From: Myxococcota bacterium
GTDB taxonomy: Bacteria > Myxococcota_A > UBA9160 > UBA4427
Assembly: GCA_036336835.1 (NCBI GenBank)
Contig: JAYZFK010000082.1
Coordinates: forward strand, 6,951-70,950
Length of the DNA: 64,000 bases
Direction: 5' to 3'
Under the pieces are notes generated by a model. It was not told the DNA's origin. It did not search any database and was given only the letters and a program-made list of their open reading frames with translations. Made by a program: the position numbers and the translations under genes. Positions within the stretch are counted from its first letter, which is position 1. Every line of letters starts with the position of its first letter. Below are positions 4,867 to 64,000 of this stretch, piece after piece.

Positions 4867-6375
4867 CTAGCTGGCAAGAGCGCTCGACGACCACTCGCCG
4901 ATCAGCGAGTGCGGCGTGGCGTCGACGATCTCTACCGGGCCGATCGCACCCGGGGCAACCGGGCTTCCCGCGCCATCCAGATTGACGACCCGGTTGTAGG
5001 GGTCGCGACCGCACAGCTGGGAACCGCCCCGGCGGCTCGGGCCTTCGATCAGCACCGCGCTGCACTCACCCACGCGTCGCCGGTGATAGGCCAGGGTGAG
5101 TCGGCGCTGGAGCCCCTGGAGTCGCTCCAGCCGATCCTGTGCAACCTCGGCCGGCACCGCGTCGGTTACAGCGAGCTCGGCCGCCGCCGTTCCCGGCCGT
5201 GACGAGTACTTGAACGAGTAGTGGTCGACGAAGCGCACCCTCTCGACGAGCTCGAGCGTGTCCTGGAAGTCGTCGTCCGTCTCGCCGGGGAAGCCCACGA
5301 TCAAATCGCTGGTCAGCGCGATGTCGGGTCGCGCTGAGCGAAGCGCCTCCACGAGCTCGAGGAATGCCTCGCGGGTGTAGCGCCGCCGCATCGCCGCGAG
5401 CACCGCGTTCGAACCGCTCTGGAGCGGCAGGTGGACGTGTGGGCACAGGCTCTCGAGCTCGCCGTGGGCCCGAACCAGCGCGTCGTCGAAGAACGACGGG
5501 TGAGGGCTCGTGTAGCGGATGCGTTCGAGCCCGCTGATCGCATCGAGCTCGGCCAGCAGCGCGGCAAACGCCAGGGTGCCCGCGGCGGCGCTGTGGCCTC
5601 GGCGTCGGTCGTGGCGGCCATAGGCGTTGACCGTCTGGCCCAGCAGGGTCACCTCCCGGACTCCGCGATCCACCAGCGCGCGGGCCTCGCCAAGGATGTC
5701 GGCAGCGGGCCGACTCACCTCCCGTCCGCGGGTTCGCGGAACGATGCAGAAGCTGCAGAACATGTCACAGCCCTCCATCACCGTCAGAAAGGCGCGGCCG
5801 GGCGTGCTCTCAGCAGTTTGCGGCTGGCGAGCGGGCAGATCGAAGCGATCGAGAGACGTCGTTTCAGAGGTGTCCGCGCTTCGCTCGCCCCGTTCCGCCG
5901 CAGCGGCCATCAGCGCGACGTGCCGGATGTTGTGGGTCCCGAAGACGAAGTCCAGCTGCGGAAACCGCCCGAGCAGCGCGTCGCCGACCTGCTGGGCGAC
6001 GCAGCCACCGACGCCGAGCACACGACCCGGCGAGGCCGCTCGCCAGCCCTTGAGTCCGCCCAGATCGCTGTACAGGTGGTGCTCCGCCTTCTCGCGGATC
6101 GAGCAGGTGTTGATGATCAGGAGGTCCGCCTCGCCCTCGCTCGTGGCTGCCGCGTAGCCGGCGTGGTGAAGCAGATTCGCCAGCTTCTGCGAGTCGTGAA
6201 CATTCATCTGGCACCCGTAGGTGCGGATGGCGAAGCTGCGAGTTCCTTCCACGGCCGCCCCTCTGTCCAACGCGCCGGCCCCCGAGCCAGCGTCCGCCAA
6301 CCTACCCCGCTGGCGGCTCCGCCGCATGGCTGGGAGGCTCCGGGGAAGCCGAGGATTACCACGAGGGGTCGACAT
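4867..6375 (-). CDS. miaB: tRNA-2-methylthio-N6-dimethylallyladenosine synthase (radical SAM methylthiotransferase)
   Basis: IRTYGCQMNVHDS N-domain, radical-SAM CDMFCSFCIVP and a C-terminal TRAM region. The true start is uncertain; 6327 or 6252 are also possible. Confidence 0.9.
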   Translation of the reverse strand: MSTPRGNPRLPRSLPAMRRSRQRGRLADAGSGAGALDRGAAVEGTRSFAIRTYGCQMNVHDSQKLANLLHHAGYAAATSEGEADLLIINTCSIREKAEHHLYSDLGGLKGWRAASPGRVLGVGGCVAQQVGDALLGRFPQLDFVFGTHNIRHVALMAAAAERGERSADTSETTSLDRFDLPARQPQTAESTPGRAFLTVMEGCDMFCSFCIVPRTRGREVSRPAADILGEARALVDRGVREVTLLGQTVNAYGRHDRRRGHSAAAGTLAFAALLAELDAISGLERIRYTSPHPSFFDDALVRAHGELESLCPHVHLPLQSGSNAVLAAMRRRYTREAFLELVEALRSARPDIALTSDLIVGFPGETDDDFQDTLELVERVRFVDHYSFKYSSRPGTAAAELAVTDAVPAEVAQDRLERLQGLQRRLTLAYHRRRVGECSAVLIEGPSRRGGSQLCGRDPYNRVVNLDGAGSPVAPGAIGPVEIVDATPHSLIGEWSSSALAS

Positions 6376-37610: not shown

Positions 37611-37815
37611 GCGTAGACCAGGAAATGGGTTGTGTAGAGCGGCATGGAGTGAATCGACAACGAGTCTTTCGGCCCACTGCGTGAGGTTCCAGACCCCATG
37701 TGAAAAACCCTAGCCGTCGCGAGCGCCCCGGGAATCGATCTGCGCGAGGCACCATCAGCTCCTCGAAGTACTCCAGGCGAGGTGAAATACAACCGAATCG
37801 AATGAGCGGCACGCG

Positions 37816-37834
37816 ACTTGCTTATAACTTGCTT
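37816..37834 (+). promoter_or_regulatory. Direct repeat ACTTGCTT-ATA-ACTTGCTT (11-bp period), upstream of the 37865 operon
   Basis: Exact 8-bp repeats at 37816-37823 and 37827-37834, spanning a -10-like TATAAC (37823-37828). The inverted repeat CTAGT-N8-ACTAG follows at 37835-37852. Confidence 0.35.
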
Positions 37835-37864
37835 CTAGTTGGCGGCGACTAGCAGGAGCATCCC

Positions 37865-38374
37865 GTGCACTTCCGACGATTGCGATCGAGTTACATGCTA
37901 GGGATCGGCGCCGCGGCTGTCGGACTTCTCACAGCCACGGTCCAGGCAACCCCGACCGACCCCTCTCTGGCGCTGCGCGCCGCGAGCGCGACGAGCGGCC
38001 GGGTCGTGATGCTTCGCATCGAGGGGAGCTTCCATGCGAGTGATCTCACGCAGGTGGCGTTCCCGCTCCAGGTTCTGGTCAGGGATCTCGACTCCGGTGC
38101 CGACTACCTGCGATACGACATCGCGCGCGGCGGCTTCAGCGGAACGGACTGGATGCTCGCCGACGGGCTGCAGGCGCGCGACGTGACCGGACTGCTGGCG
38201 GGCGGGACACCCGAGCCGACGGCGCAGCTGCTCGAGCTCAGCGAGGACCGCATCGACCTCACGCTCCCGAGCGAGTTCGCCGGGAGGCGGGTCGAGGTTC
38301 AGCTCTTCGTAGTGCACGGGGGCACAGCCGTGCTCTCGAACCCCCTTTCGCTCAGGATTGGAGAGGCGTCGTGA
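37865..38374 (+). CDS. Exported hypothetical protein (about 140-aa beta-rich mature domain)
   Basis: GTG start after AGGAG. Signal peptide is MHFRRLRSSYMLGIGAAAVGLLTATVQA. The C-terminal segment RRVEVQLFVVHGGTAVLSNPLSLRI looks Ig/TIG-like. I recognise no family. Confidence 0.7.
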   Translation: MHFRRLRSSYMLGIGAAAVGLLTATVQATPTDPSLALRAASATSGRVVMLRIEGSFHASDLTQVAFPLQVLVRDLDSGADYLRYDIARGGFSGTDWMLADGLQARDVTGLLAGGTPEPTAQLLELSEDRIDLTLPSEFAGRRVEVQLFVVHGGTAVLSNPLSLRIGEAS

Positions 38375-39891
38375 TGCGGCGCGCTGGTCTCATCCTCGCG
38401 CTGCTTGGATCGACGCTCCTCGGGAGTGTCTGCGAGAGTGGACCGGACTCCGTGCTGGCAGGAGACCCGGCTGACCCCGTGACCGGACTGGTCTACGAGA
38501 TCGTTCCCGGTGCGCCGCGCATCGCTGCCGGACCAGACGGCTCGTTCGGAACTGACGACGATCAGGTCGGTCCCGAGATCGGGGACATCGACCTGGTGAT
38601 TCGCTCGCTTGCAAGCTTCGTAGGCGCAATCCCGCCGACTGCACCACGACGCGCGGGCGGCGCGATCCCGACCGTCGTGGCGGGGCGTCTGGGTGTCGGC
38701 ACGGGCATCCCGTTCAGTCTCGCGCTGACCGACGGCGTCCTGCCGTTGGGCCCGCCGGTTGTACTCGACGACCTCTCGGACCTCCCGATGCTGGTGCTCG
38801 CGTATGCGGATTTCGACGGCGATGGCTACATCGGAATCACGCAGCTCGATGGCGATGCGCTCGACAGCGATGTCGAGGAGGCCGAGCTCGTTCCCATCGC
38901 GCGTCGCTATGCGTTCCTCCCACAGACTACGACCTCGGGTGAACTCTTCGCTCAGGCAGGTGGGCCACCGGGCGCCGAGCTCGACGTGGTGCTCTCGGTC
39001 GTCACCTGGGCGGGCCGACGGCGGCCCGGTTTCTTCTCGGGCGCCGTGCCGGACGGCCCAGCGCTCATGACGCGCCTCCCGTTCCATCCACTGACGAGCG
39101 TCCTCGACACCCTGGGCGACGATCCCGGTCCGGCGAGCGCTGGCTCACTGGTCGGCGCCGAGGTCCGGCCCGCCTTCGAGCCGGACCCCGGCGACCCGGC
39201 GATCGGCGAGGCGTTCACCATGCTGCTGGACGGCTCCCAGCCCTCTACCGATCGGGCAAGAATCCGGTCGAGCGAGTTCGTCCGCTTCGGACTTGCCGTC
39301 ACGCCCAAGGCCGACTTCTTCGACGACATGCCGTCGCGCCCGTTGCGGCCCGGGTTCGACGACGCAGGAGCACGCGTGCTCTACGAGATCCTGCACCAGC
39401 TCAGCCTGCCAGACGATGGATCCTCGAGCGAGGCCACCGTGCGCGTGGTTCCGCTCGACGCATTTGGCAATATCGCGTCGCTCCCGATCGGCGAAACAGT
39501 CGAGCTGGAGGCATCGGGCTCACTCGAGATCCGCTGGCCGGACCGCGACGGGGATGTGCAACGCGAATCGCTCTCGATCCGCGACGGGCGGGGAGCGGAT
39601 ATCGTGATCGACGACTCCGGCGGCGCCCTGGACGACGCCGACTGGGGCCGCTTGACCGTCACGTCGCCCAGCGGGATCTACTTCCTCGACGTCAGCATTC
39701 CCGACCCGGATGTGGATGATTCCGGCCTCGTCGACTTCGGCGATCTCATGCTGATCGGGGCTCTGGACGGCGCGCGCGTCGGCGAGGCCGAGTATGACAG
39801 TCGGTTCGACCTGGACGGCAACGGGCGGCTCCAGGACGACGACCTGGACGAGGCCGCAAGTCATCTGGGCGCGGCGGTCACGATTCCCTGA
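38371..39891 (+). CDS. Exported hypothetical protein with an Ig-like module and a C-terminal dockerin-like Ca-binding repeat pair
   Basis: GTGA overlap with the upstream gene. Signal peptide is MMRRAGLILALLGSTLLGSVC. Has a DFDGDGYIG loop, a Big-like segment VRVVPLDAFGNIASLPIGETVELE, and a C-terminus DVDDSGLVDFGDL...DLDGNGRLQDDDLDEA. Confidence 0.75.
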   Translation: MMRRAGLILALLGSTLLGSVCESGPDSVLAGDPADPVTGLVYEIVPGAPRIAAGPDGSFGTDDDQVGPEIGDIDLVIRSLASFVGAIPPTAPRRAGGAIPTVVAGRLGVGTGIPFSLALTDGVLPLGPPVVLDDLSDLPMLVLAYADFDGDGYIGITQLDGDALDSDVEEAELVPIARRYAFLPQTTTSGELFAQAGGPPGAELDVVLSVVTWAGRRRPGFFSGAVPDGPALMTRLPFHPLTSVLDTLGDDPGPASAGSLVGAEVRPAFEPDPGDPAIGEAFTMLLDGSQPSTDRARIRSSEFVRFGLAVTPKADFFDDMPSRPLRPGFDDAGARVLYEILHQLSLPDDGSSSEATVRVVPLDAFGNIASLPIGETVELEASGSLEIRWPDRDGDVQRESLSIRDGRGADIVIDDSGGALDDADWGRLTVTSPSGIYFLDVSIPDPDVDDSGLVDFGDLMLIGALDGARVGEAEYDSRFDLDGNGRLQDDDLDEAASHLGAAVTIP

Positions 39892-39935
39892 GACGGCGCG
39901 ACAGCGACCGTGCTCTGGCGTCGCCAGGAGCAGCG

Positions 39936-40580
39936 ATGGACACTTCTCAGCCAGACTCAGTCCAGCAGATGGACGCATTCGACCAGGAGTCGGACGCGAT
40001 CCGCACGCTGCTCCTCGTGATCGTCGCGGTCCTCGCGCGACGCAGCAGCATCTCGCCAACCGAGCTGGACGCGGTCTTCTCGGTCGCCGGCGATCTGGTC
40101 CGTGCGCGCTGGGGACCGCACTCCGTGGCAGAGCGGGAAGTCAACGGCTGTCGCGAGGACTTGACCGGGTCTGCGCCCCACGCACAGAAGGCCCCAGCAC
40201 CGGAGGATGGCTCCCACTGGGAGCGCGAGCGGCCGATCGAGGTTCTTCATCAAGTGGCGGACGCGATTCGCACGCTGCTCATCGTGGCCATCGCCGCGCT
40301 CAGGGGCGCGGGCCGGATCTCGCAACGCGAGTTGGACGCGGTCTTCTCTGCGGGGGGGGATCTGGTCCGTCAGCGCTGGGGGCCGCACTCGGCGGCGGGC
40401 ATCGTGATCAACGGCTGCCAGGACGACCTGACCGAGGCGCTCTCGGCGTTGGGCATGCACGGCGCGGGCAGGACTCGGACCGGGCTCTCCCCGGCGAGCA
40501 CCGAGCAACGCTGCGAGGCGGGGAACGCGCCGCCTGCCAGTCGATCCGCCCCCCTCGTTGCGCCGGCTCCCGGGAGCTGA
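39936..40580 (+). CDS. Hypothetical protein composed of two about 60-aa repeats
   Basis: ATG after AGGAG. High third-position GC on the plus frame, while the antisense ORF is Arg-rich junk. No signal peptide. I recognise no family. Confidence 0.65.
   Translation: MDTSQPDSVQQMDAFDQESDAIRTLLLVIVAVLARRSSISPTELDAVFSVAGDLVRARWGPHSVAEREVNGCREDLTGSAPHAQKAPAPEDGSHWERERPIEVLHQVADAIRTLLIVAIAALRGAGRISQRELDAVFSAGGDLVRQRWGPHSAAGIVINGCQDDLTEALSALGMHGAGRTRTGLSPASTEQRCEAGNAPPASRSAPLVAPAPGS
39993..40439 (+). repeat. In-frame internal tandem duplication (two copies, 267-nt period)
   Basis: Copy 1 is 39993-40172 and copy 2 is 40260-40439. DAIRTLLLVIVAVLARRSSISPTELDAVFSVAGDLVRARWGPHS...NGCREDLT aligns with DAIRTLLIVAIAALRGAGRISQRELDAVFSAGGDLVRQRWGPHS...NGCQDDLT. 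Confidence 0.85.
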
Positions 40581-40626
40581 CCTTCCCGCCGGGCGGCACG
40601 AGCCGAACCGGCGCTGCGAAGCCCGC

Positions 40627-60899: not shown

Positions 60900-60976
60900 T
60901 GGTAGCGGTGGCTGGACTTGAACCAGCGACCTACGGCTTATGAAGCCGTCGCTCTAACCGACTGAGCTACACCGCC
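60900..60976 (-). tRNA. tRNA with CAU anticodon (elongator Met or lysidine-dependent Ile2), CCA encoded
   Basis: The minus strand reads GGCGGTG TA GCTC AGTCGGTTA GAGC G ACGGC TTCATAA GCCGT AGGTC GCTGG TTCAAGT CCAGC CACCGCT A CCA, a full cloverleaf. It has no initiator features (no 3-GC anticodon stem, no C1-A72). Confidence 0.9.
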
Positions 60977-61744: not shown

Positions 61745-63349
61745 TCAAGCGGATGGATCGTCGGTTGCCGCCGGGAGCCGAACCTCGACCGTGGAGCCCT
61801 GCCCGACCGCACTGCGTGCACTGACCGTGCCGCCGTGCTGGCGGGCGATCTGTTGCGCCACGATCAGGCTGGGCCGCGCCACGGCCTCTTCGAGCCTGAG
61901 CTTCGGCTCGAAGACCTGCTGGAGCTCATCGGGTTGCATGCCCGGACCGGCGTCGACGATCTCGATCCAGGCACCGTCGCCGGACTCGTCGGGATCGGGA
62001 GCGATGCGGAGCAGGACGCGCTCACCGGCAGGTGTCGCGTCGATGGCGTTCAAGGTCAGTCCGACCAGCATCTGCTCGAGCAGTGCCCGCTGGCCGATCA
62101 CCTTGGGTGTCGCGGGATCGGCTTCGACAGCTACCTCGATCGAGGCAGCCGCGGCCGTGCCTTCGACCAGCGACGCGATCTCCCGCGCGATCTCGAGGAG
62201 GTCGATCGTGCCGACGCTTCCAGCCTCGGGCTGGGTCTCCCCCAGCGCAAGCAGTCCGGCCAGCTGCTTTCGCACTCCTTCGAGCTCGAAGCCTGCATCG
62301 CCGGCCACGCTCTCGAGCCGCGCCAGGGGCTCCTCGAGCGCGCGCGCAACGCCGAGCGACAGCCGTCCCAGGATCCCCAGGCGATCGGCACGCTGGAGCT
62401 GCTCGTGCGAGCTGCGCAGTGCGACCGCGGTTCGGGCTTTCTCGAGCGCGATGACGGCCTGGGTCGACAGGCCATCGAGCAGCGTTCGGTCGTCGGCGCC
62501 GAACCGCCGCCCGCCACTTCGATTGTCGATCGCGATGGCACCGATCACGCCGGCTTCGCCAGCGAGCGGGACGATCACCAGCTCCTCGGCCGACACCTCG
62601 GAGATCCACTGGCGGATCGGAGCCTCGAGCCCGCTCATCTGATCGACGCGAAAGGCCTGGGCCACGCCGCCTTCGAGCCGTTCGAAGAAATCGGGTGCTC
62701 CTGCTCTGCTCAGCTCGATGGCTCTCAGCCGCTCCGCCACCTCGTCTCGTGGCACTGCGGCCGCCCAGCGGAGCGCGCTGCGATCGGGAGTGAAGAAGAG
62801 CACCGCGGCAGCGTCGAGACCGAGCTCGCTGTGGGCCGCGTCGATCAGCAGCCGCACTACTCGATCGGGATCGATCTCACGGTGCAGGGTTCGCGAGAGC
62901 CAGTTCAGGAACGTCAGCTCGTCGACCAACGCACCGCGCTCCCGGTCGAGCGCATAGCGTTCGATCGCGCGGCGTAGGGTGAGCGCCATCTGGTCCGGGT
63001 CCCAGGGCTTGGCGACGTAGCGGTAGATGCGACCATCGTTGATCGCCGCCCCCAGGGTCTCGGCGTCACCGTAGGCGGTCACCAGGATCCGCACGGCCTG
63101 GTCGTCGAGCTCGCGCACCCGACTCAGGAATTCGACGCCCGTCATACCCGGCATTTTCTGGTCGGACAGCACGACCGCGACCGGATTGTCGTTGAGCAGA
63201 CGCATTCCCTCCTCGGCGCTCTGCGCGGTCAGCACCGAAAAGTCGCGCCGGAAGGTCAGCTCGAAGACCCTCAGATTCGCGGCCTCGTCATCGACGTAGA
63301 GGATCGGGAACTCGCGCGAGTCGTGGGCGCTGATGGGCCTGGGCTTCAC
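61745..63349 (-). CDS. Receiver-GAF-histidine-kinase-like protein (H-box and G2 box degenerate)
   Basis: GTG at 63349 overlaps the upstream kinase stop as GTGA. REC domain has ILYVDDE...VVLSDQKMPGMTG...KPW. A GAF region follows, then a DHp-like GVARALEEPL. The HATPase has an N-box and DAGPG but no GxGLG. Confidence 0.85.
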   Translation of the reverse strand: MKPRPISAHDSREFPILYVDDEAANLRVFELTFRRDFSVLTAQSAEEGMRLLNDNPVAVVLSDQKMPGMTGVEFLSRVRELDDQAVRILVTAYGDAETLGAAINDGRIYRYVAKPWDPDQMALTLRRAIERYALDRERGALVDELTFLNWLSRTLHREIDPDRVVRLLIDAAHSELGLDAAAVLFFTPDRSALRWAAAVPRDEVAERLRAIELSRAGAPDFFERLEGGVAQAFRVDQMSGLEAPIRQWISEVSAEELVIVPLAGEAGVIGAIAIDNRSGGRRFGADDRTLLDGLSTQAVIALEKARTAVALRSSHEQLQRADRLGILGRLSLGVARALEEPLARLESVAGDAGFELEGVRKQLAGLLALGETQPEAGSVGTIDLLEIAREIASLVEGTAAAASIEVAVEADPATPKVIGQRALLEQMLVGLTLNAIDATPAGERVLLRIAPDPDESGDGAWIEIVDAGPGMQPDELQQVFEPKLRLEEAVARPSLIVAQQIARQHGGTVSARSAVGQGSTVEVRLPAATDDPSA

Positions 63350-64000
63350 GTGGTGCTCCCCGCGGCGTCCGCGATTGGCAGAGTCAATGTGAAGCAGCTG
63401 CCCTCCCCCACGCGCGACTCCACCGCGAGCCGTCCGCCATGGGAATCTGCAATCCGGCGGCACATCGAAAGCCCAAGACCCGAGCCCTGCCCCGCCGCCT
63501 TGGTCGTGAAGAATGGATCGAACAGGTGCGGGCGCACGTCGTCCGCGATGCCCACACCGTTGTCGCGCACCTCGACCTCGAGCTCTCCGCCGTGTTCGCG
63601 GACTGCCACCGTGATCGTGCCTCCACGCCCTTCCATCGCTTCGGCCGCGTTCTTGACCAGATTGAGCAAAAGCTGGTTCAGGGCACCTCCATCGCCGTGG
63701 ACGGTCTGGAGCGCATCCGGGAGCTCCAGCGAGAGCTCCACGCCAGCTTTCTCGAGATCGTGGCGCATCAGCAGCCCGGTGGATCGAATGCCGTCGCACA
63801 GATCGACCGGGCCGCTCTCTCCGGCGCCCGGGGCTGCGAAGTCACGCAGCTGGCTCACCAGCCGTTGCGTCCGCTCGAGCCCGGCGCTCACGATACCCGA
63901 GAGCTCGACCACGGTTGCACCGAGATCGTCGGAACAGGTCGACTCGACCCGCTCGCGCGGCGCTGCACCGCGGGTCTCGAGCTCGGCACCATCATCGAGA
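63346..64000 (-). CDS. Sensor histidine kinase, C-terminal part (5' end lies outside the window)
   Basis: Complete HATPase_c: N-box LLLNLVKNAAEAM, G1 VRDNGVGI, F-box FDPFFTTK and G2 GSGLGLSM. The frame stays open to the window edge. Confidence 0.85.
   Translation of the reverse strand, partial: LDDGAELETRGAAPRERVESTCSDDLGATVVELSGIVSAGLERTQRLVSQLRDFAAPGAGESGPVDLCDGIRSTGLLMRHDLEKAGVELSLELPDALQTVHGDGGALNQLLLNLVKNAAEAMEGRGGTITVAVREHGGELEVEVRDNGVGIADDVRPHLFDPFFTTKAAGQGSGLGLSMCRRIADSHGGRLAVESRVGEGSCFTLTLPIADAAGSTT

Follow-up and report, generated by a model that had tools for sequence, protein, structure and literature searches.

A translationally coupled gene pair for predicted exported proteins, with a candidate sigma-54 promoter, in an uncultured Myxococcota bacterium

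Dockerins are modules used for attachment to a partner protein, and the closest described counterpart of the protein considered here is the type II X-module-dockerin dyad found in scaffoldins of cellulosomes, such as Clostridium thermocellum CipA (XDoc; PDB 2b59, 3kcp, 4fl4, 5m0y), an immunoglobulin (Ig)-like beta-sandwich followed by a two-helix, two-calcium-loop dockerin. Chains of Ig-like domains with calcium loops are also seen in multi-Ig adhesins and biofilm matrix proteins (RbmA, ClfB/FnBPA, Big_1). On the side of regulation, the pilS-pilR-pilA genes of Myxococcus and Pseudomonas represent a sigma-54 target operon placed beside an NtrC-type two-component system. Scattered modules of the dockerin kind are reportedly surveyed by Peer et al. 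2009 in ‘Noncellulosomal cohesin- and dockerin-like modules in the three domains of life’. Here we analyse three consecutive genes, called A, B and C, in a 64,000-nucleotide (nt) stretch of contig JAYZFK010000082.1 from a Myxococcota bacterium, “the window”. A first-pass annotation of the same letters had read them as one operon and as a candidate for an undescribed system, in which two exported proteins could form a surface or adhesion module with a cytoplasmic chaperone or regulator. Our analysis shows that A and B make up a conserved, translationally coupled two-gene cassette; its transcription may depend on a sigma-54 promoter, and gene C does not belong to it. The open reading frames (ORFs) and ribosome-binding sites are the following.

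37854-37858, plus strand: ribosome-binding site AGGAG of gene A, read from the sequence
37865-38374, plus strand: gene A, 169 aa, GTG start
38371-39891, plus strand: gene B, 506 aa, its start overlapping the stop of A (GTGA)
39926-39930, plus strand: ribosome-binding site AGGAG of gene C, read from the sequence and kept in loci L007, L008 and L026
39936-40580, plus strand: gene C, 214 aa, ATG start

Loci carrying the A-B genes were collected through exact look-up of the proteins, from a scan of species-representative genomes and from metagenomes scanned with the A family, and profiles of A and B were then searched over all six-frame ORFs of the fetched loci. In every other independent locus where this could be checked (18/18), an A-like and a B-like gene overlap or directly adjoin each other. 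B is immediately preceded on its own strand by the A-like ORF in L001-L006, L009, L010, L012-L021 and L028-L030, that is, in all loci with upstream DNA. The overlap of A with B is 1-19 nt long in all gene-called loci, hence the translational coupling that had been noticed in the window, where the stop of A and the start of B share GTGA (...TCGTGATGCGG), is itself conserved. An ATG one codon after the GTG would be an equally good start for B. The taxa carrying the pair are Myxococcota, “Deltaproteobacteria”, Binatia/Binatota and one bin labelled Spirochaetales. In the closest relative (L001/L002) B is 82% identical and the order is that of the window, ftsH-tilS, then A-B, then maoC-acs.

Long spurious ORFs are common at the GC (guanine plus cytosine) content of the window, about 68%, and codon-position GC was therefore used as a coding test. 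The values at positions 1, 2 and 3 are 0.71/0.51/0.83 for A, 0.74/0.50/0.81 for B and 0.72/0.55/0.84 for C, the same pattern as in ftsH, tilS and acs (acyl-CoA synthetase), from which overlapping alternative ORFs differ. This coding-type composition confirms A, B and C as real genes, with the lengths first described. The AT-richer divergent region between tilS and A was likewise correctly noted: the spacer has a GC of 0.56 against ~0.69 in the surroundings, and the tilS product is a PP-loop protein (Pfam match, E=3.5e-51). The C start codon lies 44 nt after the B stop, with AGGAG 5 nt before it. A promoter and terminator scan of the A-B-C region found no sigma-70-like promoter, and its sole terminator-like site falls inside the B coding sequence, within chance expectation. 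None of the three window proteins reached the threshold for a Pfam, NCBIfam, PADLOC or PHROG family, in agreement with the earlier failure to assign them a function.

The neighbours of the cassette in relatives were compared by clustering of flanking ORFs, by Pfam scans and, in extra loci, by BLAST. Most relatives share a recurrent order: an NtrC-type response regulator, A, B, a convergent kinase and lnt. The regulator, with REC, Sigma54_activat and HTH_8 domains, directly precedes A in at least nine related loci. The downstream kinase, of 760-910 aa, has an unannotated N-terminal half (~500 residues) followed by GAF, HisKA and HATPase_c domains; after it comes lnt, encoding an apolipoprotein N-acyltransferase (LNT_N/CN_hydrolase). 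The kinases of L005, L010, L014 and L030 are 44-53% identical over 735-844 residues, which makes them orthologues and not merely kinases. The sigma-54 two-component system and lnt are thus true conserved neighbours of A-B in relatives, which the first-pass annotation did not contain. In the window, in L001/L002 and in L003/L004 the cassette stands in unrelated neighbourhoods. Two histidine-kinase-like ORFs at 61763-63957 of the window (minus strand) match the cassette kinases in the catalytic core alone.

Since sigma-54 regulators were seen beside A-B in relatives, we searched for -24/-12 promoters, defined by a GG and a GC doublet at a distance of exactly 10 nt inside TGGCAC-N5-TTGCW, on the coding strand and upstream of the gene. 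One such site was found in the window.

37807-37822, plus strand: sigma-54 (-24/-12) promoter-like site CGGCACGCGACTTGCT, 58 nt before the A start codon

The site has its GG at 37808-37809 and its GC at 37820-37821, and fits 11 of the 12 specified positions. No other sequence on either strand of the window comes within one mismatch of TGGCACGNNNNTTGCW, and ~0.56 such sites per window would be expected by chance; by our arithmetic, this puts at ~0.001 the probability that one falls by chance in the ~250 nt before A and on the correct strand. Moreover, a 17-nt block over the site is identical in L001 within a clearly diverged tilS-A spacer (the columns of the full window-L001 alignment, which takes in flanking coding sequence, are on average 77% identical). 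Similar sites precede A in L005, L014, L016, L018, L029 and L030; those of L029 and L030, TGGTATGCTCCTTGCT and TGGTACGTTCCTTGCT (TGGTAYG-N4-TTGCT), are between the regulator stop and A. In total, 8 of the ~16 loci open to this test have a site ahead of A that scores at least 10/12; the background rate is 0.019 per 300 nt. These sites suggest that transcription of A-B depends on sigma-54 and its activator. The arrangement in L029 and L030, with an enhancer-binding regulator, a -24/-12 promoter and a gene for an exported surface protein in this order, resembles that of pilS-pilR-pilA, and the window would retain the promoter part of it. Nonetheless, neither A nor B is a pilin, the kinase lies downstream in convergent orientation rather than upstream, and the cassette of the window, with its predicted sigma-54 control, is away from the regulators.

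Several other features were observed around these promoters. Just past the site, at 37823-37850, L001 lacks 15 bases that the window has (ATAACTTGCTTCTAG); they copy ACTTGCTT of the -12 element and so point to a small local duplication in the leader. Two further short blocks of the tilS-A spacer are shared with L001, at 37675-37686 and 37742-37751; these blocks, CCCACTGCGTGA (with CAC-N3-GTG) and GGCGCGAGGC, could be activator-binding sites or tilS promoter elements. In L003 the 90 nt upstream of A (5420-5509) are extremely AT-rich (TTACACATATTATCTGTTAAAATAGTTATTTACC...) in a GC-rich genome and hold no sigma-54 site, hence that copy of the cassette may have gained a different promoter. Extra exact GGCACG-N4-TTGC sites occur in L005 (5191-5204, minus strand), L009 (5121-5134, minus), L010 (3820-3833, minus), L014 (3725-3738, minus), L016 (3849-3862, minus) and L020 (4005-4018, plus). 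Several of them point away from A, and those of L016 and L020 immediately precede an unannotated but conserved ORF (cluster L016 2730-3845, L018, L020). The A-B neighbourhoods of relatives seem to be rich in sigma-54 promoters.

Both proteins of the cassette are predicted to be Sec-exported. Residues 1-28 of A read as a signal peptide, with an RR n-region, a hydrophobic core and a VQA|TPTDP cleavage site. An AlphaFold2 (AF2) model built from 8 sequences gives a single beta-sandwich over residues 36-164 plus two short helices, with a predicted local distance difference test score (pLDDT) of ~90 over residues 70-150; a signal peptide and one beta-rich domain were what had been expected of A. Its homologues share the motifs TPTDP, FPLQVL and LSNP. 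Foldseek comparison with the PDB returned weak Ig V-type matches (E>=1e-3), sequence and profile searches of the PDB returned nothing relevant, and neither the window protein nor any of 20 family members has a Pfam match. As a candidate cohesin for the dockerin of B, to be recognised by a nine-stranded jelly-roll beta-sandwich matching cohesin structures or by Pfam Cohesin, A was rejected: there was no cohesin in the top 50 Foldseek PDB hits and no Pfam Cohesin match.

The features of B that matter for its interpretation are listed below.

38431-38433, plus strand: Cys21, the sole cysteine, at the end of the signal-peptide hydrophobic core, a possible lipidation site
38809-38826, plus strand: DxDxDG calcium-loop motif D147-F-D-G-D-G152 within AYADFDGDGYIGIT, invariant
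39250-39696, plus strand: Ig-like beta-sandwich module or modules, residues ~294-442, all-beta in the AF2 model
39703-39888, plus strand: dockerin-like C-terminal module, residues 445-506, with two D-rich loops, each followed by a helix

Homologues of B fall into 34 clusters, all from uncultured bacteria, and those with names are metagenome-assembled genomes (MAGs) of Myxococcota or Deltaproteobacteria; among 185,579 species genomes, at least 13 species-level matches cover the N-terminal region. A and the N-terminal 430 residues of B are thus families without a curated match and of narrow distribution, and a literature search found nothing specific to them. The database call for the window protein has 470 aa. 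That call is too short: the first 36 residues of the 506-aa form, which hold the signal peptide, can be aligned throughout the family, and this start is therefore the right one. The AF2 model of B, built from 33 sequences (pLDDT 87.9, predicted template modelling score 0.84), runs from a signal-peptide helix through a mostly-beta region (~30-290) and beta-sandwiches (294-442) to a two-helix module (445-506). Residues D147, D149, D151, G152, G155, T157, D160 and D165 are invariant in 33 sequences, and residues 145-157 give a weak EF-hand match; calcium binding is suggested at this loop and at those of the dockerin. The signal peptide, the DxDxDG loop and the dockerin-like end of the first-pass annotation could be upheld, the last through orthologues and profiles. 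Its Big-like Ig segment is all-beta in the model and has Foldseek Ig-like hits at low template modelling (TM) scores, with no Pfam Big match. A cysteine stands at the position of Cys21 in ~23/33 homologues, often as their sole cysteine, making it possible that B is lipid-anchored there.

The dockerin loops of the window protein, DVDDSGLVD and DLDGNGRLQ, each precede a helix of the model (456-464 and 489-496), giving the duplicated loop-helix of a dockerin. Four orthologues exceed the 22.9-bit cut-off of Pfam Dockerin_1 (PF00404), namely P0004 (33.4), P0017 (29.4), P0021 (42.6) and P0026 (27.8), at the position aligned to the C-terminus of the window B, and the family profile matches solved dockerins (2y3n_B, E=2.7e-5; 2b59_B, E=4e-5). 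The C-terminal ~150 residues as a whole resemble the CipA XDoc dyad, an Ig-like beta-sandwich preceding the dockerin: the last Ig-like module is in the position of the X module, where Foldseek and profile alignments to such dyads begin, and the B profile aligns across part of the X module and the dockerin of 2b59_B (at the E-value just given) and 3kcp_A (E=1e-4). Foldseek probabilities for these dyads reach 1.00, yet target TM-scores are low (0.33-0.37). Unlike in CipA, no cohesin partner was identified here, A is not cohesin-like, there is no carbohydrate-active module, half of the B family has no dockerin, and the host is an uncultured marine bacterium with Myxococcota-type MAG relatives rather than a cellulolytic Firmicute. 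With the modules in the survey of Peer et al. 2009, B shares a dockerin on a non-cellulolytic exported protein and a genome with no evident cellulosome; the A-B pair, the N-terminal domain of B and the sigma-54 two-component neighbourhood are not known to be described there. Whole-chain Foldseek against the PDB brought up X-dockerin dyads and multi-Ig adhesin or structural proteins, with no enzyme fold, and against viral structures generic Ig-like matches alone. The likeness to the multi-Ig adhesins lies in the Ig-like chain and the calcium loops, but all query TM-scores are <0.2 and no Pfam Big or adhesin domain was detected in B.

The C-terminus of B varies among its relatives. Distant members show a weak PKD-like match (L013) or Cys-rich thrombospondin-type-3-like (TSP3-like) repeats (L019, L021), and three members carry DUF7467 after the dockerin, a domain for which the literature search found no paper. 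P0021 has a second, Cys-rich dockerin-like insertion immediately behind the conserved GDxDLVxR motif (alignment A3 columns 212-279), and Pfam reports two Dockerin_1 stretches in it. The window's own population is present in seawater and cold-seep metagenomes. In three seawater runs the depth of assembled contigs about doubles at 38563-38669, and the loose ends there read ACGACGACGAGGACACCGAC..., as would fit the presence in these samples of another B-like gene, similar to P0004/P0005, in which an acidic insertion precedes IGDIDLVIRS; that gene could belong to another species or be a paralogue.

Gene C was found to be as first described in its lack of a signal peptide, its own AGGAG and its two repeats. 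These are in frame with a period of 267 nt (39965-40129 and 40232-40396), and are 73% identical in DNA and 54% in protein, with a core of ~65 residues. Sequence and profile searches revealed no Pfam or PDB relative of C. A word-indexed search gave two relatives, and an exhaustive HMMER search of 1.84 billion representatives gave three true ones (P0036, P0045 and P0046); a scan of metagenome contigs found none. A further hit, P0044 (2652 aa), was rejected; it is a repeat protein of eukaryote type, rich in Ser, Thr and Pro, that matches C through low complexity and not through homology. P0036, from the near-identical strain of L007, is a one-repeat C whose 5′ part matches repeat 1 and whose 3′ part matches repeat 2, probably a recombinational deletion. 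P0045 (104 aa, 54% identical to C) is encoded convergently with the maoC orthologue in L026, the two genes overlapping by 15 nt. P0046 (104 aa, 45% identical) adjoins the C-terminus of an apparent P-type ATPase, recognised by eye, in L027. The family shares an invariant core of Q, DA-RTLL, E, F, L, RWG, S-A, NGC and D, and comparison with L007 (11 synonymous and 13 non-synonymous differences) suggests moderate constraint. C is a real member of a very rare family of ~104-aa small proteins, tandemly duplicated here and of cytoplasmic type. As these 104-aa relatives exist at 45-54% identity, the idea that C had been inserted recently or had arisen de novo was rejected.

The proposed survey of A-B-C co-occurrence gave a divided answer, with A and B together in all loci and no C-like ORF in any A-B locus other than those of the near-identical strains L007 and L008. 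In L001/L002 the stop of B is 30 bp from the stop of maoC, compared with 735 bp in the window. Over the last 102 residues of maoC, identity is 94% between window and L001, 87% between window and L026 and 83% between L001 and L026. L026 thus looks like an outgroup, on this 102-residue fragment alone, and the loss of C in L001 is likelier than its gain here. C is not part of the A-B unit and would have come to lie between B and maoC by local history rather than by function; it is probably co-transcribed with A-B here solely through its position.

C is also a hotspot of variation among strains. Its four differences from L008 (4/4) are non-synonymous and clustered at 40138-40241, at the end of repeat 1 and in the linker. 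Metagenome contigs show microdiversity at 40420-40484, and two haplotypes that differ at 11-12 of 125 positions near 40390-40514. The end of maoC and the 46-nt spacer between C and maoC (40581-40626), which separates their convergent stops, are invariant, unlike C; the spacer has a short GC hairpin, CCGCCGGGCGG, without a T-run. Elsewhere in the window, a tRNA-Met gene lies at 60900-60976 (minus strand).

The explanation that we favour, giving it about an even chance of being right, is that A-B is a sigma-54-transcribed cassette for an inducible, exported, structural or adhesive pair of the envelope or surface, in which A associates with B, and that C is separate. It builds directly on the conservation of the pair, the domain make-up of the proteins, the promoter motif with its conservation, and the neighbourhood in relatives. 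Transcription of A-B would start from the promoter at 37807-37822. In the relatives, the kinase would phosphorylate the activator, which would drive formation of the sigma-54 open complex and expression of the pair. In the window and its closest relative the cassette would have kept this promoter, now next to tilS; with tilS as neighbour instead of the regulator, the activator must be encoded elsewhere. A would be secreted as a single Ig-like domain. B would be exported, possibly lipid-anchored by its sole cysteine, as a chain of beta-sandwich domains stabilised by calcium and ending in an Ig-like module and a dockerin. The surface or adhesion role suggested at the outset would fit this Ig-like string and dockerin of B. 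A more ambitious version appears unlikely to us, in which A-B, the NtrC-type regulator, the GAF kinase and perhaps lnt are an undescribed envelope system of Myxococcota/Binatia type: a sigma-54 circuit would switch on surface assembly, A would serve as a non-cohesin receptor or cap for B, and an exchangeable C-terminal module of B (dockerin, PKD-like or TSP3-like) would set its anchoring.

A number of results weigh against the explanation that we favour. About half of the related loci have no recognisable -24/-12 site upstream of A, no sigma-54 activator is encoded in the window, and no RNA sequencing (RNA-seq) runs were found for expression. The association of A with B is suggested by gene coupling as its sole basis, and A has no likeness to cohesin, the usual partner of dockerins. 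The window B itself has no Dockerin_1 match at E<=1, only weak EF-hand matches at 478-500, and the dockerin is absent or replaced in the more distant half of the family, so that it cannot be the core of B function. Measured against the lipobox [LVI][ASTVI][GAS]C that closes a lipoprotein signal peptide, that of B is non-canonical, as residue -1 of Cys21 is V in the window and R, H, E, D or T in others. Finally, the N-terminal 290 residues of B have no convincing known-fold match, leaving room for an enzymatic or ligand-binding role.

Perhaps A and B act instead as periplasmic accessory or feedback proteins that bind the large extracytoplasmic N-terminal region of the kinase, like CpxP or NlpE for CpxA, and would adjust its signalling instead of forming the structural output of the system. 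The pair does sit between regulator and kinase in at least nine loci, the kinase offers ~500 unannotated N-terminal residues, and B may be a lipoprotein with lnt as a recurrent neighbour. Yet in the window, L001 and L003 no kinase adjoins the pair, which is less expected for an obligate co-sensor, the variable C-terminal modules of B are typical of surface proteins, and A and B profile searches covering the kinase ORFs gave no match to kinases; we consider this explanation improbable. The missing fold match could, in turn, hide a new calcium-dependent beta-sandwich catalytic domain, borne on a dockerin like the enzymes of cellulosomes, making B a secreted enzyme, for example on polysaccharide, with A as helper or inhibitor. 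Dockerins are classically appended to enzymes, and the N-terminal domain of B has invariant Asp and Glu and near-invariant Arg residues (D72, D74, D147-D165, E169, E172, R78, R326). However, Pfam, NCBIfam, PDB profile search and Foldseek gave no catalytic fold or family, the invariant acidic residues are in DxDxDG-type loops typical of structural calcium sites, B has no invariant His, Ser, Cys, Lys or Tyr, and the neighbours of A-B are regulatory and not carbohydrate-active, so that we regard an enzyme as quite improbable.

The original view of A, B and C as one three-component system, with C as cytoplasmic chaperone or regulator, now appears very remote. It is true that C follows B on the same strand after 44 nt, has a ribosome-binding site of its own and is not parted from B by a terminator, and that it is a real family under some constraint, as seen in the differences from L007 and the invariant RWG and NGC. 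But C is missing from the A-B locus of the closest relative and from every further one outside the near-identical strains, a relative of C is found beside a P-type ATPase gene in L027, and the place of C beside maoC in L026 makes C-maoC the older linkage. C also has no similarity to chaperone or regulator families, and nothing else points to such a role. The proposal of an undescribed system is thereby reduced to an uncharacterised A-B pair, a modest lead that is not a three-gene system and not clearly a new one.

A sigma-54-controlled operon for exported Ig-like, dockerin-bearing proteins is a familiar kind of thing, and A-B has no bearing on a major open question, as MAGs hold many such uncharacterised exported pairs. 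What is new here is the regulation, in the form of the sigma-54 promoter and of the adjacent activator and kinase in relatives, and the separation of C keeps a false three-component system from spreading. If our explanation is true, A-B would be a further case of a dockerin outside cellulose degradation, and a small family pair of limited phylogenetic spread whose regulation offers a clear handle. An anonymous pair of hypothetical proteins would then become experimentally approachable in a cultivable myxobacterial relative.

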